From NCBI GenBank assembly GCA_000830275.1, contig CP010424.1, forward strand, positions 1,110,001 through 1,142,000: a DNA stretch of 32,000 nucleotides. The letters run 5' to 3'. This DNA comes from an archaeon GW2011_AR10. Its GTDB lineage: Archaea; Iainarchaeota; Iainarchaeia; Iainarchaeales; GW2011-AR10. The stretch's first letter is position 1, and every line of letters begins with the position of its first letter. The translations under genes were made by a program, and so were the position numbers. This document shows, in pieces, positions 195-29,795 of this stretch. The notes under the pieces are model-generated. The model worked only from the letters and a program-made list of their open reading frames with translations, ran no database searches and was not told the origin of the DNA.

Positions 195-313
195 AACTAC
201 ATTAGTGTGCCAAAAAAGTTTAATTAAAATCCCAGAAAACAAACCACTGCTTTTGAAAAGCTAACTTTTTATACCTTTTGTGTTTGAATTACTAATGAAT
301 TGTTGGTGTGTTT

Positions 314-787
314 ATGGAACTGGTTTTGGACAAGGTTGACCACAAAATAATCCAGCACTTGCTTCAGGACGGCAGAAGCTCTTTTAGTTCCATTGCAAAG
401 GACGTTAACCTTACCGATGTTGCAATAAAAAAAAGGGTTGAGAGGCTTAAGAGGAAAGGCGTCATAAGCGCCATAACTGCTGACTTAAACTTAAAGGTTT
501 TAGGGTATGAGAACCCGATTTTTGTTCAAATCCGTTCCGAGATTTCGAAGAACAAGGAGCTTATAAAGCGCTTGAAGGAGTTTGACTACATCATTGAGCT
601 TCACCAAGTTTTAGGGGAGTACAACCTTCTTGCAAAGCTTGTGGTGCCAAACCTTTCGCTTGCAGAAAAATTCATTGAGAAGCTTGGCGTGCTCGATGGA
701 GTGCTTGACATTAAAACCCTTGTCATTTTAAGCGAGCTCAAGAAAACGAATTCTTTGCCCATATTCTCCCTGCAGAAAAAACTTTAA
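314..787 (+). CDS. Lrp/AsnC family transcriptional regulator
   Basis: LDKVDHKIIQHLLQDGRSSFSSIAKDVNLTDVAIKKRVERLKRKGVISAITADLNLKVLGYENPIFVQI fits the Lrp/AsnC wHTH plus ligand-binding domain pattern. ATG 314 is preceded by GGTG; the track start 308 is GTG. Confidence 0.85.
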   Translation: MELVLDKVDHKIIQHLLQDGRSSFSSIAKDVNLTDVAIKKRVERLKRKGVISAITADLNLKVLGYENPIFVQIRSEISKNKELIKRLKEFDYIIELHQVLGEYNLLAKLVVPNLSLAEKFIEKLGVLDGVLDIKTLVILSELKKTNSLPIFSLQKKL

Positions 788-3124: not shown

Positions 3125-3218
3125 GTAAAAGAATAGCATCAAAACCAATAAAAATATTACGTCAATTGACGAAATAAGGTTTTTTAGTTGTTCGCCAAAA
3201 GGATTAATACCCTTTTGA

Positions 3219-4553: not shown

Positions 4554-6740
4554 TTATCTGACATAAGTCGGCTTAATTGTTGTTGTGGTTGTTGCCCTGA
4601 ATTCTTGGTATGATTCCAGAACCTCTTTTCTTATTGATGGAAGAATCTTTGCCATTGCTTCAACCAAGTGAGACTTTTTAACTTCTGTTGCCTTCATGTT
4701 GCTTTCCTGAAGGCTTATCAGTGCGGCCTCCCTAATCATGCCCTCAATGTCTGCTCCGCTATAGCCCTCGGTTTTCTTTGCTATTTCCTCTAGTGATACG
4801 TCTTTTGCTAGTGGCACGCTTTTGCTGTGCACTCTAAGAATTGAGAGCCTTGCCTTTTCATCCGGTGCAGGAATCAAGATCATCTTATCAACTCTGCCGG
4901 GCCTCATAAGCGCTGGGTCAATAAGGTCAGGCCGGTTTGTCGCAGCAATGAATATCACATCCTTCAGTCTTTCAATGCCATCAAGCTCTGTCAGCAGCTG
5001 GTTCACAACTCTTTCTCCAACCCCTGAATCAGTGCTTTGACCGCGTGTTGAAGCAATTGCATCGATTTCGTCAAAGAAAATGATTGCAGGCGAAACCTGC
5101 CTTGCCCTGTGAAAAATTTTTCTGATTCCTTTTTCGCTTTCTCCAACCCACATGCTAATGAGCTGTGGTCCCTTGATTGAAATAAAGTTTGCCTCGCTTT
5201 CAGTTGCCACTGCTTTTGCCAAAAGAGTTTTGCCGCAACCCGGAGGACCGTACAGCAGTACACCGCTTGGCGGATTGATTCCCAGCCTTTTGAATGATTC
5301 ACTGTGCTTTAAAGGCCACTCTACTGCCTGCTTTAATTCCCTTTTCACGTTCTCTAAACCGCCAATGTCCTTCCACCTAATGTTTGGCACCTCAATTGTC
5401 ACTTCCCTTAAAGCGCTCGGCTGCACGTCCTTCAATGCTTCCTGGAAATCGGTTTTGTTCACTTCCAGTGATTCAAGCACTTCAGTGGGAATCTTGTCCT
5501 CATCTAAATCTATTTTTGGAAGGTAACGGTGCAGGGCTTTCATTGCAGCCTCTTTCACGAGTGCTTCAATGTCCGCGCCAACAAACCCGTGCGTGACAGA
5601 CGCAAGGTAATCCAAGTCAACATTTTTTGCCAACGGCATTCCCCTCGAATGAATCTGAATGATTTGCTTTCTTCCGCCCTTGGTTGGAACGCCTATCTCA
5701 ATTTCCCTGTCAAATCTTCCAGGCCTTCTAAGCGCCTCATCCAAGGAGTTAACCCTGTTGGTTGCAGCAATAACAATTACGTTGCCTCTTGCCTCCATGC
5801 CATCCATTGCTGAAAGAATCTGTGCAACAACCCTTCTTTCAACTTCCCCTATTACTTCATCCCTTTTTGGGGCAATTGAGTCTATTTCATCAAAGAAAAT
5901 AATGCTTGGAGCATTCTTTTCAGCTTCTTTGAAAACTTCCCGGACTCTTTCCTCTGCTTCCCCAACAAATTTTGACATAATGCTTGGAGAATTTATTGAA
6001 ATGAAATGTGCCTGGGTTTCAGTTGCCACTGCTTTTGCGAGAAGGGTTTTTCCTGTTCCGGGAGGGCCGTGAAGCAGAACGCCCTTCGGCGGGTTAATGC
6101 CTAGTTTCCTGAAGATTTCAGGGTGCTTCATTGGAAGCTCTATCATATCCTTGATTTTTTGGATTTGCTCTTTCAAGCCGCCAATGTCCTCGTAAGCAAT
6201 TTTTGGAATTCCAGCAAGGGAATCCTTAACAGGCTCTTCCTTCAGTACAAACTGGGTGAAATCAGTTATTTTAACAATGCCGCGCGGGGTTGTGTCAACC
6301 ACCTGGTAAACAAAGCCGGAGCCAAAAACACTGATCCAAACGTTGTCTCCTTTGGTTAATGGCCTTCCAATGAAATTCTTTTTCAGTATCCTGTCATAGC
6401 CTGAAGCAATTATTCTGACTTCCTGTGTTGGAGCAAGCACAACCCTTTTGGCTTCAAAAAAATTTGCTTTTCTTACCGCAACCTTTTCTCCTAGCGCGCT
6501 CCCCGAATTATGCCTTATAAAGTTGTCCATCCGAATTATGCCCTTACCTTCATCCTCTGCTCTTGCAGGCCAGATAACAGCAGCAGTTCTTTTCGGGCCC
6601 TCAATTTCAACTATGTCACCAGAGGTTACGCCGAGTTCTTCTTTTGTTCTCTTGTCCAGCGTGATAATGTTCCTTCCCACATGGCTTGGATCAGGGTCCT
6701 CAACCCTCAATATTGCGTCCTTTTTTTTGTTTGAAAACAT
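4554..6740 (-). CDS. cdc48: Cdc48/VCP-like AAA+ ATPase
   Basis: Cdc48 N-domain plus two AAA modules. Walker A GPPGTGKT and GPPGCGKT; Walker B IIFFDEID twice. 728 aa. Confidence 0.97.
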
Positions 6741-8422: not shown

Positions 8423-10531
8423 TTACTGTTTAGGCTTTTGTATAACCGCGGTTGAAATGGCTTCAGAGTCCTTCTTTTTTACAGTATTTTCAAGCTTTTT
8501 TTCCCCAGCTTTTTTCCAGTCTGCTTTTGAAGGGCATTGCGGGAAAATGCACATTTCGTAACGGTATCGTTTTCCAAAAACTTTTATAACTGGCTTTCCG
8601 CACTGCTCGCAGAGCTTGTCAGTGGAAACAATTTTTCCCTTCTGTGGAAGAGGATATGTATTCATGCAGTCAGGGTATCGGTTGCATGCAAGGAACCACT
8701 TGCCGTTCTTGCTCTTGAGCTTTCTCAGTTGGCCTTTACCGCACTTGTCGCATGTTCCAATAACTGAGTCGGCTTGCAGTGCTTTCCGCAAGTCGCTCCC
8801 AACATTATTCTTGTTCTTAAGCATGTCCTCCAGTATGATTCCCAAAAAGTCCCTTGACTCGTCCACAACCTCTTTTTTTGATTTTTTGCCTGCTGCAACC
8901 AAGTCCATTTCTTTTTCTAGTTCTGCAGTCATCTTTGGCTCGGTTACCCTCTTAGCGTACTTATCCAGTGAATCAATTACTGCAAAGGCAACCTGGTTTG
9001 GCTCCATTGCCTTTAGCCCGGCAATGTAATGCCTTGCATAAAGCTTTTGAAGTATCTCGTGCCTTGTAGCCTTTGTGCCGAGATTCAAGTCCTCCATTAG
9101 CTTGATAAGGCTTGACTGAGAGTAACGCGGCGGCGGCACAGTTTCCTTTTCAAGCAAGTTCATTTTCAGCAGCTTCACTTCATCTCCTTCAAGCATTTCC
9201 GGCAGGATTACTTCAGTGATTTTAGAGTAAGGGTAGACGTCCTTCCAGCCCGCCTTCAAAATAAGCTGCCCCCTTGCAATGAATGGCTCGCCATTAACAT
9301 GGATTTCAACACTCTGGTTTTCAGTTTCAGCGTCCTCTGAGAGAGTGGCAAGGAACCTCCTAACAATCAGCTCGTAAATTTTCCACTGCCTTTCACTCAA
9401 TTTGCTTTTAGGGGCAGCAGAAACAGGGTGAATTGGAGGATGGTCTTTTGAAGCTTTCTCGCCGGCGCTTGGCACAAGCTTGCCTCTGCTGAGAATTTCT
9501 CCAACCAAATGAGAGAACTCGTTTACTTTCACCATCTCGTCCAGTATCTGCTTCAAGTCAATTGTTGGGGGGTAATGTGTGTTATCCGTTCTTGGGTAAG
9601 ATGTATAACCCTGCTGGTAGAGGAACTCTGCGTGGTTCATGGCTTCCCCTACACTCATTCCAATTGCTGTTGCAGCACGCAAAAAGTTGGTTGTATTGAA
9701 TGGTGTTGGCCTTGCAAGAACTCGCTTCTTCCTTGAAATGCTTTTTACAATTCCGCGTTCGGATTTTTTTTCCATAATTTTTTCGGCAGTTTCCTTGTCC
9801 CACATCTGACCATTCTTGTGTTCTGTCTCAAAATTTTTGGAATCCTTTTCGAACAGCGCTGAAACAACCCAGTACTTCTTTGATTTGAACGCGTTCCGTT
9901 CCTTTTCCCTTTTTACAAGTATTGCGAGCACAGGTGTCTGCACCCTGCCAGCGCTCAAAAAGTCCTTTCCAAGCTGGCCGCTTACAAGCGACAGAAAACG
10001 CGTTAAAACAGCTCCCCAAAGGAGGTCAATTTCCCGCCGTGAATCAGCTGAATCAGCAAAGTTGAAGTCAACTTTTGCCAGTTTTGCGAAGGCATCCTCT
10101 ATGTCCTTCTGCGTTATTGCCGAAAAATACGCTCTTTTCACTGCAATTTTTGGCTTTGATTGCTTGACAATGTTCAGCGCTTCAACACCAATTGATTCTC
10201 CCTCGCGGTCAGCATCAGTTGCAATAATCACTTCATCAGCTTTTTCTCCAAGGCTTTTCAAAGCGGAGGCAATCACCTTCTCTTTGGTTAAGTACTCTAT
10301 CTCCGCTGTTGCAAGCTTCTTTAAGTCGGTTCCAAGCCAGTAGCTGTACTTTTTTGGGAAATCAACGTCAACAATGTGGCCCCGCAGCGGCACAACAACC
10401 CAGTCTTGCTCCGCTCTCTTGAAGGAGAAAATAATTGCTTTGCCGGAAGCAGTGGCAGGTACTTCCTTGCCTGCGAGAATCGAGGCAATCCTTCTCCCAG
10501 CAATGGCTTTCTCTGAAATAATCATCTTCAT
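8423..10531 (-). CDS. topA: type IA DNA topoisomerase
   Basis: TOPRIM motif IIATDADREGE, catalytic Tyr region GYTSYPRTDN, and C-terminal zinc ribbons (CDKCGKG..CNRYPDC and CEQCGKP..CIFPQC). Confidence 0.95.
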   Translation of the reverse strand: MKMIISEKAIAGRRIASILAGKEVPATASGKAIIFSFKRAEQDWVVVPLRGHIVDVDFPKKYSYWLGTDLKKLATAEIEYLTKEKVIASALKSLGEKADEVIIATDADREGESIGVEALNIVKQSKPKIAVKRAYFSAITQKDIEDAFAKLAKVDFNFADSADSRREIDLLWGAVLTRFLSLVSGQLGKDFLSAGRVQTPVLAILVKREKERNAFKSKKYWVVSALFEKDSKNFETEHKNGQMWDKETAEKIMEKKSERGIVKSISRKKRVLARPTPFNTTNFLRAATAIGMSVGEAMNHAEFLYQQGYTSYPRTDNTHYPPTIDLKQILDEMVKVNEFSHLVGEILSRGKLVPSAGEKASKDHPPIHPVSAAPKSKLSERQWKIYELIVRRFLATLSEDAETENQSVEIHVNGEPFIARGQLILKAGWKDVYPYSKITEVILPEMLEGDEVKLLKMNLLEKETVPPPRYSQSSLIKLMEDLNLGTKATRHEILQKLYARHYIAGLKAMEPNQVAFAVIDSLDKYAKRVTEPKMTAELEKEMDLVAAGKKSKKEVVDESRDFLGIILEDMLKNKNNVGSDLRKALQADSVIGTCDKCGKGQLRKLKSKNGKWFLACNRYPDCMNTYPLPQKGKIVSTDKLCEQCGKPVIKVFGKRYRYEMCIFPQCPSKADWKKAGEKKLENTVKKKDSEAISTAVIQKPKQ

Positions 10532-10550
10532 TCAATCAACTCAAGCTATG

Positions 10551-10771
10551 GCAAAATGCTTATTTATTTGAACAAAAATTGCATTTTGCAACTAGCAAAC
10601 AGCAAATTAATGCTCAAAAATCAAAGCTGTTTGCTATATATCAAATGACATTAATAATTGAACATTTATTATTCATTTGCTATAGCAGGCGACATTAATT
10701 TTTGAGCATTTATTGTCGCCTGACAGATAGCAAATGACCTTATTTTTTCAAATATTTTCGCCATTTGCTAT
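10551..10771. repeat. family-1 array A: five contiguous ~44-bp palindromic modules
   Basis: Inverted-repeat arms at 10551-59/10581-89, 10593-603/10626-36, 10637-48/10673-84, 10686-94/10714-22 and 10727-36/10762-71. AT-rich 19-25 nt loops. Junction motif TTTGC-TATA-GCAAA. Confidence 0.85.
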
Positions 10772-10794
10772 ATTTTTGGCATCAGCAAGAAAAA

Positions 10795-11361
10795 TCAGGT
10801 TTTCTGGATTTTTTTCAGCTTATCCCAGTAAAGCACCAGCGCTATAATTACTACTGCTAACGCAACCAGTGAAATGCTCAACAAAAAGCTTGCGTCTTCT
10901 CCGGCAGAAACCGGCGAAGCCAAGGGCGCGGCCCCTTTCACTGTTTCTTCAGCGATTCCAATTTCTTCAAAGGCCCTGCCATCACTGGCATTGGAAGTTA
11001 GTGCTGGTTGCTGCAATAATCCAATTGAGCCCAGCAACATCAGCAGCACTCCAGCGAACGCAACCGAGGCAACGCTTAACACAATCAGCACTGTTGTCTC
11101 TGTTTCCTTTGCTTTCACAAGCTGCTTTCCCTTTCGCGTCAAGGAATAGTACTTCCACTTCCTTCCCTCATCTATTAGTTCAACGAGCCTGTTTTCCAGC
11201 AGAACTCCTAAATGCTGCTTCGTGCTTGGGCTGCTCAATGAAAGCTTTTTTGCCAGTTCCGTCAATGTATGGTTTCTTTCATCCAGCAGCTTCAAGATTT
11301 TTACTCGGTTCTCGGAGGAAAGGGACTTGAATTCTGGGGCTGAAAGCGTTATCTCCGGCAT
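10795..11361 (-). CDS. ArsR-type wHTH regulator with C-terminal membrane anchor
   Basis: FKSLSSENRVKILKLLDERNHTLTELAKKLSLSSPSTKQHLGVLLENRLVELIDEGRKWKYYSLTRKG is an ArsR/SmtB-like wHTH. It is followed by two hydrophobic segments (VLIVLSVASVAFAGVLLMLLG and LLSISLVALAVVIIALVLYW). Confidence 0.75.
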   Translation of the reverse strand: MPEITLSAPEFKSLSSENRVKILKLLDERNHTLTELAKKLSLSSPSTKQHLGVLLENRLVELIDEGRKWKYYSLTRKGKQLVKAKETETTVLIVLSVASVAFAGVLLMLLGSIGLLQQPALTSNASDGRAFEEIGIAEETVKGAAPLASPVSAGEDASFLLSISLVALAVVIIALVLYWDKLKKIQKT

Positions 11362-11718: not shown

Positions 11719-11810
11719 ATTTTTATATAGGGGCTTCTACCCTTTTTAAGTGTTTCATTTTGTTAAGTCAACTGCTTTACAATTCCTTTCCCCAAAAATC
11801 GCGGTTAAAT

Positions 11811-11921
11811 GTGCCTTGCGGCACAGCCTTTTAAAAAAAGGCTGGCGAAAATGTGGCTTCGCCGAAGCCTTTTAAAAAAAGGCTGGCGAAAATGTGCCTT
11901 GCGGCAAAACCTTTTTATAGC
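11811..11921. repeat. family-2 array A: 41-bp tandem units of AGCCTTTTAAAAAAAGGCT plus a GGCGAA..TTCGCC hairpin
   Basis: Palindrome copies at 11825-11843 and 11866-11884. Hairpins gtgccttgcggcac (11811-24), ggcgaaaatgtggcttcgcc (11844-63) and gtgccttgcggca (11894-906). The array ends in AAACCTTTTTATAGC (11907-21). Confidence 0.8.
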
Positions 11922-11951
11922 AATTAAGTTCTATTACATTAGAATTAAGAT

Positions 11952-13048: not shown

Positions 13049-13104
13049 CCAACCGCAACTGCCAATGCAAAAAATTATATAGTTGGAGCGCCTTTTATTA
13101 ATGG

Positions 13105-13800
13105 ATGAATATTAATATTAGCATTGAAAAAAAGCCGGTCCTGGCTTTGGTTACATTAATTGCATTGGTGGCTATTTTCAGTTTGGTTATAGCCTATAAT
13201 CCAAACTGGCGCATTACTCCCGGAAACCCTGTTACTTTTGGTCACAGCCCCGACGAAATTGGAATTACCACAGTTTGCACCTTGGGGCAGGCACTAACTT
13301 TAACCGCAAGTGGTTGGAGTTGCGTTAATGTTGGGGGCGGCGGAGGCGGTCTTCAAATTGATTTTTCTGATATGGGGCAGACAATTTCCTCTGGTTCTGA
13401 TGGAACCCTGACTATTAATACCAATATTTTGCCTAATGGGGATTACCCTTATTACTCTGTTCCTCCTGGAGGCTCTAAGGAAATAATAATATTGGATTCC
13501 AGTTATGCAAACTACGCCGACACCAAGGCGGTTGTTATTGCCACCTATTTCGAGGGGGATGGTGGGGGCCCTGGCAGAGTATCATTTTATGTTGAGGCTA
13601 AAGACAGTTCTGGTTCGTGGAAAGTCATAAGCGTTGATGGTTTACACTTTAACGCAGCAGAAGGCTACCATCAGTCAGGTGCACAGTTTATTGTTCCGGC
13701 TGTCGGAAAAGGCCCTGCTGATTTAAGAATCAGGGTTCAATACGCTTCCGGTGCAACTTCAATAAAAATTATATTAAAAAGAGTCGGCGTAATTTATTAA
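13105..13800 (+). CDS. membrane-anchored extracellular protein, function unknown
   Basis: N-terminal anchor MNINISIEKKPVLALVTLIALVAIFSLVIAY, a Gly-run linker (GGGGGG), and a beta-rich C-terminal region. Confidence 0.75.
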   Translation: MNINISIEKKPVLALVTLIALVAIFSLVIAYNPNWRITPGNPVTFGHSPDEIGITTVCTLGQALTLTASGWSCVNVGGGGGGLQIDFSDMGQTISSGSDGTLTINTNILPNGDYPYYSVPPGGSKEIIILDSSYANYADTKAVVIATYFEGDGGGPGRVSFYVEAKDSSGSWKVISVDGLHFNAAEGYHQSGAQFIVPAVGKGPADLRIRVQYASGATSIKIILKRVGVIY

Positions 13801-13822
13801 TTGCGCAAAATTCTATTAATGG

Positions 13823-13852
13823 ATGAAAATTAATATTAGCGTTGAAAATTGA
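13823..13852 (+). other. 9-codon uORF or relic start (MKINISVEN*), homologous to the 5' end of gene 13105
   Basis: ttattaatggatgaatattaatattagcattgaaaa (13096-) matches ctattaatggatgaaaattaatattagcgttgaaaa (13813-). The second copy hits TGA 5 nt before ATG 13858. Confidence 0.3.
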
Positions 13853-13857
13853 TTCGA

Positions 13858-16008
13858 ATGAAAAAATTTTTTTCACAGTTGTTTGTGCTGCTTTTTCTGG
13901 TTTTTTTTATTCCGTTCGTTGCTGCACAGGACTGCACTATTAAGCCAAGCTGCCTTGCTTCAGAGTTTGCAGTTTTCTCTGTTCCAAGCACAACAAATGC
14001 TCACGCGTCAACCGCTGTTTCTGGTGCAGGCTCTTACTCCAATAAAGTCTGCTGCCCGTCCTCCGAATTTTCGGGCAACAGCTGCAGTGATCCAAATAAG
14101 GACGTTGCCCTGAACCTTTACAATGCAATGAACTCGCATGTAGAGCAGGATGGTTTGGGCAATTACTTTAATCCCGTTTGCCTTACTGCTGCAACGCAAG
14201 TAACCTGCTGGTACACAAGCGATGATTGTTCTGTTGCTGATGGTGTTGGAGTTGCAAGCATCTGGGATGGGCTCTGGGAAACAGGGGATGCAATTCAAAT
14301 CACTAACGCCCACGTTGAGCAATACAATGGCTCGGGCAATTACCCGATAAACGTTTGCTGTTCTGCTTCGGCTCCCTCAACTGATGTTTGCGGTGACGGA
14401 ACCGTTTCAGGCACAGAGGTTTGTGATCCTGCCCAAACTCCTGCAGAAATTGCGGCAATCTGCGGTGCAGGCAACGTCTGCGTTCCAGCTGGCCTTGCAA
14501 CTGAATGCACTTGCAATGCGCCTCCGATAGTGCAAATCATTGCACCTCCTGATGGGGCATCGTATGACATTGATGATGACATGCCCGTGTTGTTTGAAGG
14601 AACTGTAAGTGATATGGATGATGGCACAATATTTAACAGGTTTAATCCTCCTCCTCTTGGAAGGGTTGTGTGGCAGTCAAGCCTTGAAACAGTTGACGGC
14701 GGTTTCTTTGGTTGGGATGCCTTGTGGTTTGAGCGCCAGTTAACAAAAGTCGGAACACACACAATAACCCTTTATTACACTGATTCTGAGGCAGCGCAGG
14801 CAAGCACTACTGTTGACATCACTGTTTCGCAGTGCAGCGATGGAGCAGTTACAGGAGATGAAGAATGCGACATTGGCGGCATTAGTGGCGCGCCAGCCGT
14901 TGCATGCACGAACCCGGTTCAAACATGCAACCTTGACTGTGAATGTGTTTCAGGCCCTGCAACCCCAACATGCAATCTTTCAGTATCAGATAACACTGTC
15001 GGCCCCGGGGATTCAGTAACAGTTGACGTTTCATTGGACGATTTTTCTACAAATCCTACTACATTTGGCAGCGTTTCATGCGGTGATGCTGCCTCATATG
15101 AAGCAGACTTTTCCTGTACCGGCAACAATTGTTCCTTTTCCTGCGGCCCTTACTCAGCCAATGGAACAATAGAGAATTTGCAGTTGAATGATGGCGTAAC
15201 AACTGTAACTTGCAGTGGCGCGGTTGATATTAGTGTAGGCTCTCCAAGTGTGCCTTCGTGTTCAATTTATGCAATCCCCACAACAGTTGCTTCCGGTGGA
15301 AATGTTCTTGTAACTTTCATTTACTATGATTTCTCTGCAACCCCAAGCTTTTTAGGAATTGATTGCGGCAATGGCGCAACCCCAAGCTCCTTTAATTGCG
15401 CACCAACGTGCTATCTTACCTGCGATTCTTACTCAACCAATGGAACAATTGAGAACGCGGTTTTAAGTGATGGCGGAACCTCTGTTAACTGCGCAAACTC
15501 ATATAATATTACTGTTTCAGGCGGCCCCGGTCCAGGGCCTGCAGGAGATATTTGGGGTGTGAAGCTTTTGGCAAGCGATGATTACAATTCTTCGTCAAAC
15601 TTTAGGGTAATGGTTAGCATTACAAATTTTTCCACCGCACAAAAAGACGCTGATATTACTGTGCAGCTTGTTGACCACTTAAGCGGGCTGCCTCTTTCTC
15701 CAGCAATAACTGCAACAAAAACCATGCTTGTTGCCGGAAACAGCTCTACGCTTGATGTGGAATTCATTGAAGCAGATTTCTCTTCACCAATTCTTCCGAG
15801 AAATTACAGAGTTGTTGCTTCCGTTCCTGCCTACAATGATGGCATAACAATTGAAACTGTTATCGGAAACAATACTGATAGTAAAGTTGTTGTTGTCGGC
15901 GAGGCAAAGGCTGTTGCAATTTCCGAGCTGCCTTTGGAGCTTGTTGCAGTCATAGCTTTGGTTGTTTTAAGTATTCTTGGCGGTGCAGTTCCAGCCAAAA
16001 AAAATTGA
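13858..16008 (+). CDS. large Cys-rich surface protein (adhesin-like) with C-terminal TM anchor
   Basis: Signal peptide MKKFFSQLFVLLFLVFFIPFVAAQ. Three NAH(V)E..Y..VCC motifs. Two CxDGxxxGxExCD repeats. An Ig/PKD-like segment (..VVWQSSLETVDGGFFG..GTHTITLYYTDS..). An internal ~90-aa duplication. A CARDB-like segment. C-terminal anchor LELVAVIALVVLSILGG plus KKN. The track start 13849 is TTG. Confidence 0.85.
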   Translation: MKKFFSQLFVLLFLVFFIPFVAAQDCTIKPSCLASEFAVFSVPSTTNAHASTAVSGAGSYSNKVCCPSSEFSGNSCSDPNKDVALNLYNAMNSHVEQDGLGNYFNPVCLTAATQVTCWYTSDDCSVADGVGVASIWDGLWETGDAIQITNAHVEQYNGSGNYPINVCCSASAPSTDVCGDGTVSGTEVCDPAQTPAEIAAICGAGNVCVPAGLATECTCNAPPIVQIIAPPDGASYDIDDDMPVLFEGTVSDMDDGTIFNRFNPPPLGRVVWQSSLETVDGGFFGWDALWFERQLTKVGTHTITLYYTDSEAAQASTTVDITVSQCSDGAVTGDEECDIGGISGAPAVACTNPVQTCNLDCECVSGPATPTCNLSVSDNTVGPGDSVTVDVSLDDFSTNPTTFGSVSCGDAASYEADFSCTGNNCSFSCGPYSANGTIENLQLNDGVTTVTCSGAVDISVGSPSVPSCSIYAIPTTVASGGNVLVTFIYYDFSATPSFLGIDCGNGATPSSFNCAPTCYLTCDSYSTNGTIENAVLSDGGTSVNCANSYNITVSGGPGPGPAGDIWGVKLLASDDYNSSSNFRVMVSITNFSTAQKDADITVQLVDHLSGLPLSPAITATKTMLVAGNSSTLDVEFIEADFSSPILPRNYRVVASVPAYNDGITIETVIGNNTDSKVVVVGEAKAVAISELPLELVAVIALVVLSILGGAVPAKKN

Positions 16009-16059
16009 GCTACTGCGCGTAGAAGTGAATTTAAAGGCTCCTTGAGAATGCGCTGCCGG
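15961..16059 (+). repeat. 99-bp direct repeat, copy 1 (last 48 nt of the adhesin CDS plus 51 nt downstream)
   Basis: gttgttttaagtattcttggcggtgcagttccagccaaaaaaaattgagctactgcgcgtagaagtgaatttaaaggctccttgagaatgcgctgccgg. 92 of 99 positions match 16892-16990 with no indels. Confidence 0.9.
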
Positions 16060-16105: not shown

Positions 16106-16594
16106 ATGTTTGTTTCAAACACTTCAACCCTGATACTGCTGGCAAAAGTTGATTTGCTGGGCCAATTCATTGAAAATTTTGGGAAAATCGAGATAACTGG
16201 AGAGGTAAGCAAAGAGTTTTCTGCAAAAGATTCTTTTGATGCAAAATTTATAAGCCGCTTAATTGAAGAGAAAAAAGTAATCGTCAAAAAAGCGGAGAGT
16301 AACATGGTTTCTGGTATTTTGATGGAGTTTTCCTTGGATAAGGGCGAGGCAACGGCGTTTGCATTATTTAATGAAAAAAGGCACAAAGCAATTTTGACGG
16401 ACGACTATGAATTAATAAAACTGTGCATGCTGAGGGAAGTACAGTTTCTTTCTGCAATGGCAATAGTTGTCAGAATGAAAGAAAAAAAGATTTTGAGCAA
16501 AGAAGAAGCCCTGCAAAAAATCAATGAATTAAACTCTTATGGGCGATATTCAAGAGAGTTGCTCGATTTTTACGTTTCGGAGGTGAAAAAGTGA
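16106..16594 (+). CDS. PIN-like nuclease, DUF3368 (COG2405) family toxin candidate
   Basis: MFVSNTSTLILLAKVDLLGQFIENFGKIEITGEV..LDKGEATAFALFNEK..AILTDDYELIKLC fits the DUF3368 pattern. TATA-like AATAATTTTAAAT lies about 25 nt upstream. Confidence 0.8.
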   Translation: MFVSNTSTLILLAKVDLLGQFIENFGKIEITGEVSKEFSAKDSFDAKFISRLIEEKKVIVKKAESNMVSGILMEFSLDKGEATAFALFNEKRHKAILTDDYELIKLCMLREVQFLSAMAIVVRMKEKKILSKEEALQKINELNSYGRYSRELLDFYVSEVKK

Positions 16595-16878
16595 GAACTA
16601 CATCAGTAAGATTGGAAGAACCGGAATCGGTCACGGCTTTTCAGAAAGTCCTAAAGGAAAAAAAATCAGAAGTGTTGCGGCAGCTAATAGAAAAAGGCCG
16701 CAAGGCAAAGTCGCTGGAATTGTTCAAGCAAAAAAAAGTATCCCTCGGCCTTGGAGCAAGACTGGCAGGTTTAACAGTAAGCGGGTATTTGGACCTATTG
16801 GAAGAAAACAGGATACCGCTAAACCTTTCCAGACGAGAAGCACAAAAAGCATTAAATACTGCGAGAAAAGTAATGTAA
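16591..16878 (+). CDS. UPF0175 (COG2886) family antitoxin candidate
   Basis: FKQKKVSLGLGARLAGLTVSGYLDLLEENRIPLNLS matches the UPF0175 core. The GTG start overlaps the upstream stop (GTGA). Confidence 0.7.
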   Translation: MRTTSVRLEEPESVTAFQKVLKEKKSEVLRQLIEKGRKAKSLELFKQKKVSLGLGARLAGLTVSGYLDLLEENRIPLNLSRREAQKALNTARKVM

Positions 16879-16891
16879 GCCATATCCAAAG

Positions 16892-16990
16892 GTTGTTTTA
16901 AGCATTCTTGACGGTGCAGTTCCAGCCAAAAAAAATTGAGCTACTGCGCGTAGAAGTGAATTTAAGGGCTCCTTGTGAGTGCGTTTCCGG
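16892..16990 (+). repeat. 99-bp direct repeat, copy 2 (orphan adhesin 3' end upstream of orc1/cdc6)
   Basis: Encodes a relic VVLSILDGAVPAKKN* in the frame of the adhesin C-terminus. 92 of 99 positions match 15961-16059. Confidence 0.9.
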
Positions 16991-16994
16991 TGCA

Positions 16995-17006
16995 AGCCTT
17001 TTAATC
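16995..17006 (+). promoter_or_regulatory. putative TATA/BRE core of orc1/cdc6 (AGCCTTTTAATC)
   Basis: AT-rich box about 29 nt upstream of ATG 17030. The same CCTTTT(T)A core lies 21-45 nt upstream of several other starts (817-830, 263-275, 11907-11921). Confidence 0.35.
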
Positions 17007-17029
17007 TTCTTCCGACAATATTTTTTTTG

Positions 17030-18160
17030 ATGAAGAAAAACATTTTTGAGCGCTCCGGCAAGGAGAAGCAGGTTTTTAAGGATGAAAAGTACCTTTACCC
17101 CGAGTTTGTGCCGGAGAGGCTTCCGCACCGTGACAGGGAAATTGATGCGCTAGTGTATGGCTTTAATCCTTTGGTTAAGGGGGGGAAACCGCACAACTTT
17201 TTTGTTGTCGGGCCAACAGGCGTTGGAAAAACTGCCTGCGTGAAGTATGTTTTGAATGAGCTGCAGGAATACAGCGACAGGGCAAAAGCCCTTTACTTGA
17301 ACTGCTTCGAGTTCAATGCAAGGCACGCAATTCTCTCCAAAATAGCGAATTTTTTGGGCGCTCCTGTTCCAAGGCGCGGGATTGCAACAGATGAAATTTA
17401 TTCGAGGTTCCTTGAGGCCTTGAAGAAGGCTGATTTTTCCCCAGTAATTGTTTTGGATGAAGTTGACCAGCTTCTTTTGAAGGCTGATGGGTCAAAGCTT
17501 TTGTATGATTTGCTGCGCGTAGTGGAGTATGAGAGGGCAAGAGTTGCCTTGGTGCTTATTTCGAATGACATTGAGTTGACAGCAAAACTTGATTCCCGCG
17601 TGAGGAGCTCCCTCACAGAGGAAAAAATTGTTTTTGAGTCCTACACTCCAGCGCAGTTGAAGGACATTCTGCGCGAGAGGGCATCCTTTGCTTTTTTGTC
17701 TGGGGCACTTGGAGAGGAAGTAATACCTGTTGCTGCAGCTCACGCCGCAAGGCTTGGGGGAGACGCAAGAATTGCAATTGAATCCTTGTTGAAGGCGGGA
17801 AGGGAAGCAGAGAAAGAGAATTCCGGCAAAGTTGAAGTGAAGCACTTGAAAAAATCTTTTGAGTCAGTTGATGCGGTTTCTTTGCTGAAAGGAATTAGGC
17901 ACTTGAATGAAAGCGAGGCACTGCTGCTTAAGCTTATTGCTGAAAAGCCCGGCATTTTTTCCGGGGAACTGTTCAAGGCCTTTGGCGGGAAAACTGAACC
18001 GCTTTCAGAGAGGAGGCTCCGCGATCTGTTGAATGGCTTGGAGAAAAAAAACTTTGTTTTCTCAGAGCAAGTCAGCCTAGGCAACAAGGGCAAAACAAGA
18101 AGTTTTTCGTGCAGGCTTCCAAGAGAGCCACTAATGCGGGAGCTTAACCGAAACCAATAA
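17030..18160 (+). CDS. cdc6: Orc1/Cdc6 replication initiator
   Basis: ERLPHRDREIDAL.., Walker A GPTGVGKT, Walker B VIVLDEVD, C-terminal winged helix. ATG 17030 is preferred over the track GTG 16979, which lies inside the 99-bp repeat. Confidence 0.95.
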   Translation: MKKNIFERSGKEKQVFKDEKYLYPEFVPERLPHRDREIDALVYGFNPLVKGGKPHNFFVVGPTGVGKTACVKYVLNELQEYSDRAKALYLNCFEFNARHAILSKIANFLGAPVPRRGIATDEIYSRFLEALKKADFSPVIVLDEVDQLLLKADGSKLLYDLLRVVEYERARVALVLISNDIELTAKLDSRVRSSLTEEKIVFESYTPAQLKDILRERASFAFLSGALGEEVIPVAAAHAARLGGDARIAIESLLKAGREAEKENSGKVEVKHLKKSFESVDAVSLLKGIRHLNESEALLLKLIAEKPGIFSGELFKAFGGKTEPLSERRLRDLLNGLEKKNFVFSEQVSLGNKGKTRSFSCRLPREPLMRELNRNQ

Positions 18161-20507: not shown

Positions 20508-20571
20508 TTTGCCCCGAAATCACTTCTCTTTCAATCATTCTTTAATTTTAACTGAAAAAAATTATGTGCAG

Positions 20572-20754
20572 GCAGCTGTAGTGTAATGGCAGCATCCGAG
20601 CTTCCCAAAAGCGGAAAGGCCCGTTTACGACCTGTACTTGTTCCACTTTCAGTGGGACGGTAGTTCAAGGTTTGCTCAAGTTTGCTCATACGGCCTTAGT
20701 TATTTTCACGATTGGAATGAGCTCGTAGCCCGGGTTCGAGTCCCGGCAGCTGCA
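20572..20754 (+). tRNA. tRNA-Gly(CCC) with a 112-nt intron at the canonical 37/38 position
   Basis: Acceptor gcagctg/cagctgc plus discriminator A. D arm gtgt-aatggca-gcat. Anticodon arm cgagc-ttCCCaa-gctcg after splicing. T arm ccggg-ttcgagt-cccgg. U8, A14, G18G19, U33 and T54-C56 are present. No encoded CCA. TATA-like TTTAATTTTAA lies about 25 nt upstream. Confidence 0.85.
20608..20719 (+). other. tRNA intron with a bulge-helix-bulge motif
   Basis: Central 4-bp helix: ttcc (20602-05) with ggaa (20714-17). 3-nt bulges caa (20606-08) and tga (20718-20). Flanking anticodon stem of 5 bp. The inner helix is weak (aa/tt, then cg/cg after a mismatch). Confidence 0.75.
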
Positions 20755-20907
20755 TTAAACCGTATTCGGTTTACGAATGTGCCATGCTCCGTTTCACTTT
20801 GCATGGCACTGCTCAAACGGAAAGATCCGTTTACGACCTATATGTGTGCCATCTTCGATGGCACGATAATTTTGCTCAGTTGCAAGGTGTGCAATCTGCG
20901 ATGGCAC
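20611..20907 (+). repeat. family-3 hairpin modules: one in the tRNA intron, two to three in the 3' trailer
   Basis: Unit 1, 20611-20658: gcggaaaggcccgtttacgacctgtacttgttccactttcagtgggac. Unit 2, 20767-20809. Unit 3, 20817-20864: acggaaagatccgtttacgacctatatgtgtgccatcttcgatggcac. Degenerate unit 4, 20887-20907. Each is followed by (T)TTGCTCA. Confidence 0.75.
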
Positions 20908-20944
20908 TGGCTCACTTCGTTCTCCAAAAAAAGAAAGAAGAGAA

Positions 20945-20964
20945 AGGGTCAGTTGACCCTTTTT
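20945..20964. terminator. bidirectional terminator-like palindrome
   Basis: agggtcagttgaccct followed by TTTTT on the + strand. An A7 run at 20926-32 gives T7 on the - strand, just downstream of the small minus-strand CDS. Confidence 0.35.
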
Positions 20965-27818: not shown

Positions 27819-27886
27819 AATGTAATATTACTGCGCATCTCTCTTAAAAATTTAATCAAGCCAACCTAAGGTTGTAGAATGCCTTT

Positions 27887-27986
27887 AAACCTTTTAAAAA
27901 AGGTTTATCAAAAATGGGCTCCGCCTAAACCTTTTAAAAAAAGGTTTGCGAAAAAGGCTTCGCCTTTACTTCACCTATGCGGAGCC
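27887..27986. repeat. family-2 array B: 40-bp tandem units of AAACCTTTTAAAAAA(A)GGTTT plus a GCGAA..TTCGC hairpin
   Basis: Palindromes at 27887-27906 and 27927-27947. Hairpin gcgaaaaaggcttcgc at 27948-63. An outer inverted repeat ggctccgc/gcggagcc (27917-24/27979-86) encloses the second unit. Confidence 0.75.
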
Positions 27987-28041
27987 ACTAATCAAGTTAA
28001 CAAGTATTCAAACCCTTATCAGACTTGTAGATAAATAAGAG

Positions 28042-28430
28042 CTATTTTATCGGAATTACGATTTTCGAGATCTGTGTAGATAAATTGATATTCAGCTTGT
28101 TTTCGTGGAATTCCATTATCAAGACACAAAGATTGTGGCAGACTGCTTTGGATAGAATTTCGTTGACATTGGCCGTAGTGTTTTTTGTCATAAGGCTGCC
28201 GCTAAATGCTTGTTTTACCATGTTGAAAGTTGATTCGACGTTACTGCGCTTGTGATAATGTTCGCCCCATTCTTTGGGGCTGTTCTTAAAGTGCCAATAC
28301 ATCTTGTTCCAAATATGGCCGACATTTCGTCTCGATTTTGTGTTTGACTTGTAAGGTATGTAAGGTGTTCCGCTGAGTTCAGCAACCGCTTTAAGATTAT
28401 TTTTTCCAAGAAAAGAATTAATTAAAACTG
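28042..28430 (-). pseudogene. 5'-truncated DDE transposase (IS4/IS5 type), C-terminal ~130 codons only
   Basis: One continuous frame without a start codon: ..LGKNNLKAVAELSGTPYIPYKSNTKSRRNVGHIWNKMYWHFKNSPKEWGEHYHKRSNVESTFNMVKQAFSG... It contains the Y-x2-R-x3-E-x6-K signature. The frame is open back to the Mrr stop codon. Confidence 0.75.
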
Positions 28431-28536
28431 CACAAGATGCAGGTAGACGAAATATGTTGATAAAATTGAAGAAAGAGTTAGACCAATTAATCAGAGATTT
28501 AGATTCTTTGGAAAAAAAGCGAGAATCTGGTTTAGG

Positions 28537-29424
28537 TTAAACCCCAAACCCTTCAAAGAAATCGTAATCTATTTTAGGTATTGATAATGGAATACTTTTT
28601 ATTCCAAGGCCATATTTTATCATCAATGCAACTAACTGTTTGCCATCAATTGCCTTAATTTTTCCAGATTTTTTAGCAGTTTCCAATGCATCTTTTGAAA
28701 AAGTTGAAGTAGTGATAAATATGCCATACTCTCCTCGTTGGGTTTGTATTGCACCTAATAAATCTCTTATTTCTTTTGATGGAACGCTGCTGTTTAGCCA
28801 TCTTTTTGCTTGAAAATGAATTTTGTATAACCCGAGCTGGTCTATTGAACATTCTCCATCTATTCCTCCATCCCCTGAGCGACCAGTGATTTTGATACTG
28901 CCGTATCCCATATTTAATAAAAGCACCCCGATAAGATTTTCAAATAAGTTAGGCTCAAGTTTTAGAAGAATTGCTAAAATTTCTTCTGAAATAGTTTCTA
29001 CAATTTCCTTCCGTGAAATCTCGATTTTTTCAAGAGGGTTCAACTCCGTTGTTTTCATCTGATGTGATTGAGAAGTATCTGGTCCAAGCGAAGAACTGCT
29101 TGAAACTTCCATTCTAGAGTAACGAGGAGTCCATGAGGCCCATTCTGCATCAAGTCGTGCTTTTCCTTTATCTTTAATTTTCCAAATACCGCGTGTTGAG
29201 CCGTCAAGTTCTTCTTTCGCAATTAATTTTTGCCTAGCCCATTGAACCCAATTTCTCCATTTATTAATCCCTGAATCCATTGTTGCCGCCAAATCTTCAG
29301 TTGTTATCTCTTTAAAGTAAGCCGTAACTAACTCAACTGCCTTTAGCATAGACAGTTCTCCACCGCCATCAGAAATGACTTTTAACAACGGAAGCTCAAC
29401 ATTAGTTTGAATAGGCAGAGCCAT
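28537..29424 (-). CDS. mrr: Mrr-family restriction endonuclease (Mrr_N winged helix plus PD-(D/E)xK catalytic domain)
   Basis: N-terminus: LPLLKVISDGGGELSMLKAVELVTAYF..WRNWVQWARQKLIAKEEL. Catalytic region: ITGRSGDGGIDGECSIDQLGLYKIHFQAKRW..GIFITTSTFSKDA. Confidence 0.9.
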   Translation of the reverse strand: MALPIQTNVELPLLKVISDGGGELSMLKAVELVTAYFKEITTEDLAATMDSGINKWRNWVQWARQKLIAKEELDGSTRGIWKIKDKGKARLDAEWASWTPRYSRMEVSSSSSLGPDTSQSHQMKTTELNPLEKIEISRKEIVETISEEILAILLKLEPNLFENLIGVLLLNMGYGSIKITGRSGDGGIDGECSIDQLGLYKIHFQAKRWLNSSVPSKEIRDLLGAIQTQRGEYGIFITTSTFSKDALETAKKSGKIKAIDGKQLVALMIKYGLGIKSIPLSIPKIDYDFFEGFGV

Positions 29425-29580
29425 ACATTTAGAAGAATAAGAACAATCTTTAAACCTCAGTTTTAGAGGTTAAAATAAGAATAAACATTAATCTACAGAA
29501 GCCCCATTCACAGTTTAGGTCACAATTTATCTACAAGTCTACCCTTACCTGCGCCTTTAAATTCAAGGAATACTTATATC

Positions 29581-29765
29581 TATAGCAAAACGCTTATGTA
29601 TTTGAACAAATAGCGAATGACTTTACTAATGGTAAAAAACAAGTCATTCGCTAGTCGCAAAAGACATTAAGAAATTACCAAAACCAATGTCTTTTGCTAA
29701 AAAAATTGCATTTTGCAACCAGCAAACAGAATTAAATGTTCAAGAATAAAAGTTGTTTGCTATAC
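29581..29765. repeat. family-1 array B: four palindromic modules, homologous to array A
   Basis: 29701-29765 is about 88 percent identical to 10575-10640. Modules: tagcgaatgact/agtcattcgcta (29611-22/29642-53), gcaaaagacatt/aatgtcttttgc (29657-68/29686-97), agcaaaca/tgtttgct (29721-28/29754-61). A split outer pair gcaaaacgc (29585-93) / gcattttgc (29708-16). Confidence 0.85.
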
Positions 29766-29795
29766 TGAGAGCTCCCCGCCAGTTGGTGTAAGTAA

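Follow-up and report, generated by a model that had tools for sequence, protein, structure and literature searches.

Small MITE-like repeats of prokaryotes are <200 bp long, A+T-rich, and able to form stable stem-loops, and they carry terminal inverted repeats with 5'-TA-3' termini (PMC2229807). A particularly high density of MITEs has been reported for some DPANN genomes (PMC11602168), and one account of the Correia elements describes them as able to create promoters at their ends (PMC2649163). REP and BIME sequences are characterized, in another such account, as short extragenic palindromes that stand back to back in alternating orientation and at regular spacing (PMC2817692), with a GTAG or CGTC tetranucleotide given elsewhere as the REP head (PMC3733652).

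Here, we describe an array of palindromic modules from a DPANN archaeon of the Iainarchaeota/Diapherotrites group, whose encoded proteins include CDC48, NFACT-R, topoisomerase I, Orc1/Cdc6, the large RFC subunit, and an archaeal PheRS. The array lies within the window, by which we mean the whole 32-kb stretch of DNA that was analysed. Its repeats fall into the same size class as the Correia/NEMIS elements of Neisseria, the RUP elements of Streptococcus pneumoniae, ERIC sequences, and the Sulfolobus MITEs, and like these they are non-coding, A+T-rich, and intergenic. Terminal inverted repeats, 5'-TA-3' termini, and single-stranded stem-loops are held in common with MITE-like repeats (PMC2229807). 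However, the stacked composites here are built from a basic unit of only ~45 bp, copy number appears low, and the arms of different units differ yet remain complementary, a form of compensation that is unexpected in ordinary DDE-type MITEs.

The likeness to REP, BIME, and REPIN sequences lies in the clustering of alternating palindromes, the compensated hairpin potential, and the gain or loss of units as wholes. By contrast, the GTAG/CGTC head is absent, with arms here starting in TAGC or TATAGC; the loops are 17-25 nt long and conserved, whereas REPs are short G+C-rich stem-loops; and REP copies number in the hundreds (tens to hundreds per genome) against apparently few here. The BOX elements of S. 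pneumoniae, built as boxA, n copies of a 45-bp boxB, and boxC, have strong secondary structure and lie close to promoters. Our repeats resemble them in being modular, with a variable count of ~45-bp modules, in their strong secondary structure, and in their promoter-proximal placement. Still, BOX consists of direct tandem copies between two distinct end modules, whereas each module here is itself palindromic and can face either way. Because membership in both the MITE and the REP class is incomplete, we file the repeats as a MITE/REP-like family and leave the enzyme unassigned. With moderate confidence, we interpret them as lineage-specific, non-autonomous, TA-ended, AT-rich palindromic repeats of the MITE or REP/BIME type.

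Results

The 263-bp spacer that separates the topA start (10531) from the stop of the ArsR-like gene (10795) was confirmed, as were the five modules and arms originally placed within it (Table 1). Together, the modules form array A (10547-10772), a row of five abutting ~45-bp units with inverted arms of 9-12 bp and AT-rich loops of 19-25 nt, spaced about 44-46 bp from start to start. The spacer contains no ORF and has a G+C content of 29% vs. about 43% for the whole window, in which a tRNA search found nothing. The original prediction held that there was almost no spacer DNA elsewhere, but the window has at least six further non-coding stretches of >230 bp. Array A is identical in all six independent assemblies of the strain; it is therefore no assembly artefact, and no recent movement is seen. 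The identical topA gene is present in DUFG01000013.1 of GCA_013332025.1 as well as in groundwater metagenomes, and the closest named relatives are Candidatus Iainarchaeum genomes.

Table 1. Features of the window, numbered from its first nucleotide
Feature	Position	Strand	Description
Lrp-like gene	308-787		
topA (topoisomerase I)	8423-10531	-	
Alpha (A1 + A2), array A copy	10547-10638		ends TATGGCAAAA...TTTGCTATA; ~92 bp
Module A1	10551-10589		arms GCAAAATGC/GCATTTTGC (10551-59/10581-89); 9 bp perfect; 21-nt loop
Candidate TATA box TTCAAATAAATAA, A1 loop	10560-10572	-	29-41 nt upstream of topA ATG; predicted
Module A2	10593-10636		arms TAGCAAACAGC/GCTGTTTGCTA (10593-603/10626-36); 11 bp perfect; 22-nt loop
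Beta (A3 + A4 + A5), array A copy	10637-10772		~136 bp
Module A3	10637-10684		arms TATATCAAATGA/TCATTTGCTATA (10637-48/10673-84); 11/12 paired; 24-nt loop
Module A4	10686-10722		arms CAGGCGACA/TGTCGCCTG (10686-94/10714-22); 9 bp perfect; 19-nt loop
Module A5	10727-10771		arms ATAGCAAATG/CATTTGCTAT (10727-36/10762-71); 10 bp perfect; 25-nt loop
ArsR-like gene	10795-11361	-	188-aa product with ArsR-type winged helix; same strand as topA, upstream
orc1/cdc6	16979-18160		6 kb from array A
Alpha, array B copy with nested insertion	29581-29764		between Mrr (-) and metallo-beta-lactamase-fold gene (+)
B1 (A1 homolog), split by insert	29585-29716		arms GCAAAACGC (29585-93) and GCATTTTGC (29708-16)
Array B insert	29611-29699		89 bp; two modules in B1 loop
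B2	29611-29653		13-bp stem; inside array B insert
B3	29657-29697		12-bp stem; inside array B insert
B4 (A2 homolog)	29720-29764		stem of 8 bp + one G.T
Candidate TATA box, alpha terminus (TTTGCTATA), array B	29756-29764	+	predicted

Because the loops are asymmetric, each module has an orientation, and array A reads A1+, A2-, A3+, A4+, A5-. A covariance model scored A1 at 58.2 bits and A3 at 40.3 bits in the + orientation and A5 at 52.5 bits on -; A2, whose loop runs opposite to that of A1, scored 60.5 bits on - vs. 13 on +. In A4, the consensus arm carries an AAT->GGC change that is fully compensated by ATT->GCC in the partner arm.

Perfect hairpins (stem of at least 9, loop of 11-30) number eight in the 32-kb window, four of them in array A and two in the spacer that holds array B (29425-29795). 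Similar hairpins from shuffled sequence of like composition had been named as grounds against the array, but dinucleotide shuffles of the 263 bp gave a mean of only 0.12, and 0 of 2,000 reached four.

The modules are divergent versions of a single 44-48-bp unit, whose consensus is TATAGCAAAtGAC–loop–GTCaTTTGCTATA. An alignment over 47 columns of all nine modules in arrays A and B, with two added from another contig, gave the full consensus TATAGCAAAnGRC / TTTnATnTTTGARCATT..ATTG / YCnTTTGCTA, and in a 10-sequence alignment this consensus was clear, with a mean column identity of 68%. Overall, the unit has arms of 11-13 bp, an AT-rich loop of 17-25 nt that usually contains TTGA(A/G)CA, and TA at both ends. 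As first described, the arms differ from module to module yet stay complementary; their differences are not arbitrary, however, since all are variants of the 11-mer TAGCAAAtGAC, and the GCAAA core is invariant in most of them.

Across the seven distinct module types, 92.9% of cells pair vs. 79.3% when shuffled (0/500), and pairing falls to 33-52% when the partner arm is slid by one to three columns. Between types, both sides have changed in 6 of the 10 pairs, and a change on one side appears in a single cell, where it leads to G.U; B2 carries a compensated A->G. These values bear out the compensatory change that had been supposed for the arms.

Array A reads as two elements, alpha and beta, that abut at a common TA (10637-10638). 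Alpha was found at three loci (arrays A and B and contig L036) and beta at two (arrays A and E). The alpha of array A is 92.5% identical to L036 203-294 and, with a nested insert removed, 83.5% identical to the copy in array B (blocks 83-97%), while its beta is 79.6% identical over the full length to L087 about 6092-6228, in the opposite orientation. Terminal inverted repeats are present in all elements, with ends TATAGCAAA...TTTGCTATA or close variants. With slashes for the boundaries, these ends take the form TA/TAGCAAA...TTTGCTA/TA, with the variants TGGC, TAAC, TATC, and TACGAC. TA flanks every element end and may belong to the inverted repeat.

The covariance model was run over ~190 kb, comprising the window, 10-kb extensions on each side, and five relatives (~100 kb). 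This extended the family within the genome to a third array, array E (L087 6093-6228; 47.8 and 36.6 bits), which lies ~2.8 kb to the left of the window, flanked by the small RFC subunit gene on one side and a 159-aa gene on the other, and consists of beta alone, with homologs of A5, A4, and A3 in that order, flipped. By contrast, no module was found in the ~100 kb from the five relatives. The genome has 12 modules in three arrays within ~52 kb, with all three arrays inside ~33 kb.

A scan of public metagenome contigs for the A1/A2 junction gave 68 matches, exactly one of which was a true extra copy: alpha alone at L036 203-294, with unrelated flanks. This contig (L036/L090) belongs to another Diapherotrites MAG, GCA_018304495.1, and ends inside the element, which is usual assembler behaviour at repeats. 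With only one further intact alpha junction from the metagenome scan, copy number looks low. Array A had no blastn match in plasmid and phage collections. A scan of viral contigs for the arm patterns returned 71 hairpins, all of which had unrelated loops and flanks on inspection, and a second returned 14 uninspected hairpins, a number near chance expectation. Next to the alpha copy, L036 300-450 is non-coding with possible stem-loops and is followed by a tiny Ser/Arg-rich ORF (MAKKRSSSSRSSSSSRSRSGSRSR); searches of this stretch gave no Rfam or tRNA match.

The four loci found (arrays A, B, and E here and L036/L090 in the other MAG) are dispersed, have unrelated flanks, and differ in module content: alpha; alpha with a nested two-module insert; beta; and alpha joined to beta through a common TA. 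At arrays B and E, the flanking genes are transcribed divergently. The 89-bp insert of array B is missing from the alpha of array A and from that of L036. Set against the A1 and L036 loops as unfilled counterparts, the flanks of this insert are A-runs, not TA.

In contrast to the compensation seen between module types, stem changes between copies of the same element are uncompensated (B1 vs. A1, L036, B4 vs. A2, and E1-E3). B1 has one uncompensated C.A mismatch and module 1 of L036 one A.C mismatch, and the B4 stem has lost three pairs relative to A2. In array E, E1 has one mismatch and E3 two to three, and the right arm of E2 is destroyed. Compensation between types together with decay within copies would be expected if complementarity matters for the propagation of the element rather than for the host at the locus. 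The loops of E2 and A4 (71%) and of E3 and A3 (92%) match directly, whereas those of E1 and A5 match at 68% when flipped vs. 46% directly. This could reflect inversion of the A5/E1 loop in place between its arms, but because the loops are AT-rich, the evidence for a flip is suggestive only.

Array A also varies between strains. In a variant strain (L089 894-1160, equivalent to window 10794-10528 on the minus strand) whose ArsR-like protein is 99% identical to that of the window, array A carries three SNPs. Two of these are TATAGC->TATGGC changes at the same motif position in the arms of A5 and A2, and both give a G.T pair on the topA-sense strand.

Covariation across a stem is of the kind seen in RNA helices. 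On a structured-RNA reading, the arrays would be transcribed and would act as processed small RNAs, as a topA 5' leader, or, in the interval from the ArsR-like gene to topA, as stem-loops with a protective or terminating role. The minus strand is sense for both flanking genes, and as RNA it folds at -79.2 kcal/mol (z = -6.0 vs. shuffles); the loops contain T-runs, and three non-Watson-Crick positions are G.U on that strand (the inner pair of A5 and the two L089 SNPs). However, the fold of the plus-strand DNA is nearly as significant (z = -5.5), and decay within copies goes uncompensated. There was no Rfam 15 match at gathering (best sub-threshold hit 33 bits vs. a gathering score of 100), and reading of the sequence revealed no C/D-box motifs. 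Moreover, with mixed orientations and an apparent loop flip, a conserved loop motif would face either sense, and arrays B and E lie between divergent genes rather than at 3' ends. We therefore regard a structured RNA as unlikely. C/D-box sRNA, CRISPR, and type III antitoxin arrays were rejected separately, there being no box motifs, no identical direct repeats, and no associated gene.

Two SNPs at one motif position would also suit a phased operator array, in which topA and its neighbours are regulated by a dimeric or multimeric protein, either the adjacent ArsR-like protein or one of the Lrp/AsnC type, that binds GCAAA/TTTGC half-sites at intervals of ~44 bp (four helical turns). The control region of Ss-LrpB has AT-centred palindromic boxes about four helical turns apart upstream of a gene, and array A shares this general layout. 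The regular start-to-start spacing (44-45 bp), the GCAAA core in most arms, and the Lrp/AsnC gene found directly upstream of topA in relatives all point toward an operator, as does the 13-bp palindrome TTGCATTTTGCAA in the best-conserved stretch between copies (97%), which resembles Lrp-family boxes.

Yet operators of the Lrp family are conserved in sequence and position and are not known to co-vary across the DNA between them, whereas the units here vary in number, order, and integrity between loci, and their arms co-vary across the loop outside the invariant core, which identical half-sites would not predict. The junctions had been described as TTTGC-TATA-GCAAA throughout, but this reading is literal at one only; the rest have 5-7-bp spacers or a degenerate half, and overall the junction spacers range from 4 to 7 bp. 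We rejected the junction palindromes as operators because the spacers vary and the arms co-vary across the loop. The array is also not kept next to a cognate gene: it is absent in the five relatives, its neighbours differ between loci, and no ArsR-like or Lrp gene stands beside array B, array E, or the L036 copy. Unit number and order vary, and E2 is without one arm. A phased operator is thus improbable, and the same lack of a constant regulator neighbour, the varying module number and order, and the cross-loop covariation of arms count against the wider suggestion of a phased operator, iteron, origin, or centromere array.

An origin of replication or a centromere-like iteron array could contain AT-rich phased repeats such as these, with orc1/cdc6 nearby and a local minimum of cumulative GC skew near 12-13 kb, for which a 32-kb window is weak evidence. 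However, the genome has three arrays of different content within ~33 kb, none of them beside orc1, and they show no likeness to origin recognition boxes. No partition genes are adjacent, the array is missing from all relatives, and the region upstream of orc1 has a separate 100-nt repeat of its own. We consider such a function extremely unlikely.

This 100-nt direct repeat (93%; 15960-16059 and 16891-16990) brackets a toxin-antitoxin-like pair (DUF3368 at 16106-16594 and UPF0175 at 16591-16878) immediately upstream of orc1/cdc6. The pair and its repeats look like a cassette inserted upstream of orc1, or may be part of an origin region. Two further repeats were seen in the window. Two neighbouring genes of unassigned function (231 aa and about 716 aa) share a 38-nt repeat (92%; 13093-13130 and 13811-13848) that spans their starts and the sequence just upstream. 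Positions 20509-20950, ~440 bp without a called gene, contain a 57-nt repeat (75%; 20609-20665 and 20815-20871) and may hold non-coding RNA genes, with no Rfam match at gathering.

In the five relatives (topA identity 61-69%), the spacer upstream of topA is ~90-200 bp long and contains no module, and before it comes a gene for either an Lrp/AsnC protein or a Na+/H+ exchanger. On the downstream side of topA, gene order is kept (orf179, NFACT-R, CDC48, M50-like). Compared with one relative, L014, the block from topA onward is inverted here, which brings topA beside the ArsR-like gene and therefore places array A exactly at the inversion junction. Judged from the gene lists, array A would thus mark a synteny break or rearrangement breakpoint. 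A 45-nt inverted repeat (80%) with the core palindrome CGTCAATTGACG, at 791-835 and 3140-3184, brackets six small ORFs; its copy at 791-835 lies at the other breakpoint of the inversion as reconstructed against L014. Beyond this strain, the nearest topA proteins are 69% identical, leaving aside a 5-kb chimeric contig. On the low-coverage contig L013 (915-3131), ribosomal protein S5 domains are joined to the C-terminal 69% of topA. The topA part is 95% identical to that of the window, and the fusion probably reflects chimeric assembly in a closely related strain.

The position of array A at an inversion breakpoint would fit palindromic repeats that are not mobile and that spread by segmental duplication, recombination, and local amplification, their arms being kept alike as transient hairpins undergo intra-strand template switching or mismatch correction. 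The apparently low copy number, the location of the genome's three arrays within ~33 kb, and the lack of a detected target duplication are consistent with this origin, and a loop flip combined with perfect arms would fit quasi-palindrome correction. However, the boundaries TA/TAGCAAA...TTTGCTA/TA are sharp and identical at five independent ends with unrelated flanks, another MAG has a copy, and the nested two-module insert has exact module boundaries. Non-mobile and transposed origins are hard to separate given so few copies, but we judge the former quite unlikely.

Other hairpin repeats occur near these genes. A second, unrelated palindromic family with a 41-bp period is found at window 11789-11933 and 27860-27960, where hairpins of AGCCTTTTAAAAAAAGGCT alternate with GGCGAAAATGTGGCTTCGCC or GTGCCTTGCGGCAC. 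Three of its tandem units lie ~1 kb from array A, and another set adjoins an IS remnant ~1.6 kb from array B. In Candidatus Iainarchaeum andersonii, a G+C-rich 41-bp tandem hairpin repeat that differs from the array A units stands just upstream of topA (L010 9860-9941), with a third copy just downstream (L010 12096-12136). The upstream insert is missing from the close relative L007. Given this repeat near topA, lineage-specific hairpin repeats in spacers seem common in the group.

The TATA-like boxes of other genes in the window are 25-40 nt upstream of the start codon. Candidate boxes fall at about this distance in the A1 loop upstream of topA and at the alpha terminus of array B, where the TATA precedes the metallo-beta-lactamase-fold gene's ATG by 32-35 nt. 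The beta terminus of array E is at -30 to -27 of the 159-aa gene, also within TATA-box range. Because the A1 loop and the array B and E termini occupy the positions expected of TATA boxes, a promoter role of the repeats is possible: ends or loops may incidentally give TATA boxes to neighbouring genes, and the element in array A may now supply the topA promoter. In having ends or loops at TATA-box distance from start codons, these repeats recall the promoter-bearing ends of Correia elements.

Discussion

The original prediction included MITE-like palindromic modules among its possible readings, and this part held up well, with dispersed copies, gain and loss of modules, a nested insertion, TA-ended repeats, decay, and absence from relatives. 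We infer that the repeat family is, or was, mobilised in trans. Array A would then be two small non-coding repeat elements side by side, both derived from one ~45-bp palindromic unit. Such units would spread, one module at a time or in short composites, into AT-rich spacers close to promoters within one Iainarchaeota lineage. Only units still able to form a hairpin, or to present two matching ends to a trans-acting enzyme, would be propagated, and inserted copies would then decay neutrally.

The mobiliser could be a DDE transposase acting on TA-ended inverted repeats, as for MITEs, or alternatively a single-strand enzyme that recognises hairpins, as in the REP/RAYT system. With regard to the first, MITEs are expected to have a parent insertion sequence with the same ends, whereas within 52 kb there is none, nor any transposase with matching ends; the sole trace is an IS4/IS5-type remnant without TAGCAAA ends. 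With regard to the second, no Y1 (RAYT) transposase, the gene that REPs flank in REP/RAYT systems, is among the genes called in 52 kb, and loops of 17-25 nt are long compared with the hairpins recognised by known single-strand transposases. Neither a clean empty site nor a target-site duplication was obtained, as the relatives without arrays are too divergent for their flanks to be aligned. For the L036 copy, relatives of its TrmB-like neighbour are not syntenic on the relevant side, and they likewise gave no empty site.

The IS remnant is the C-terminal part of a DDE transposase (28042-28494, minus strand; PF01609, E = 2e-6). Together with the Mrr restriction endonuclease gene, it is bracketed (28026-29539) by CTTGTAGATAAAT-like 13-mers, which occur twice on the left (28026 and 28073) and twice, inverted, on the right (29487 and 29527) and may be transposon ends.

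A further possibility would be an as yet undescribed kind of self-propagating hairpin element, in which an enzyme of the DPANN archaeon acts on single palindromic modules. Modules would insert beside other modules or into their loops and invert in situ by way of a single-strand or cruciform intermediate, and the modules stacked upstream of topA would have been co-opted as a supercoil-sensitive, cruciform-prone promoter. The different hairpin repeat upstream of topA in Candidatus Iainarchaeum andersonii hints at convergence. We nevertheless hold this scenario to be very unlikely.

Read as a MITE/REP-like family, the repeats are a new family of an already known element type, in an under-studied archaeal lineage. 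They indicate that a very small, gene-dense DPANN genome still carries active or recently active miniature palindromic repeat families. These repeats mark rearrangement breakpoints and sit where the promoters of housekeeping genes must be (topA and a gene beside the small RFC subunit gene). For annotation, this is a warning that such arrays are not to be read as dedicated regulators, origins, or sRNA genes. Finally, with stems compensated between types but uncompensated within copies, the family neatly illustrates, on a small scale, selection that acts on the element and not on its host.
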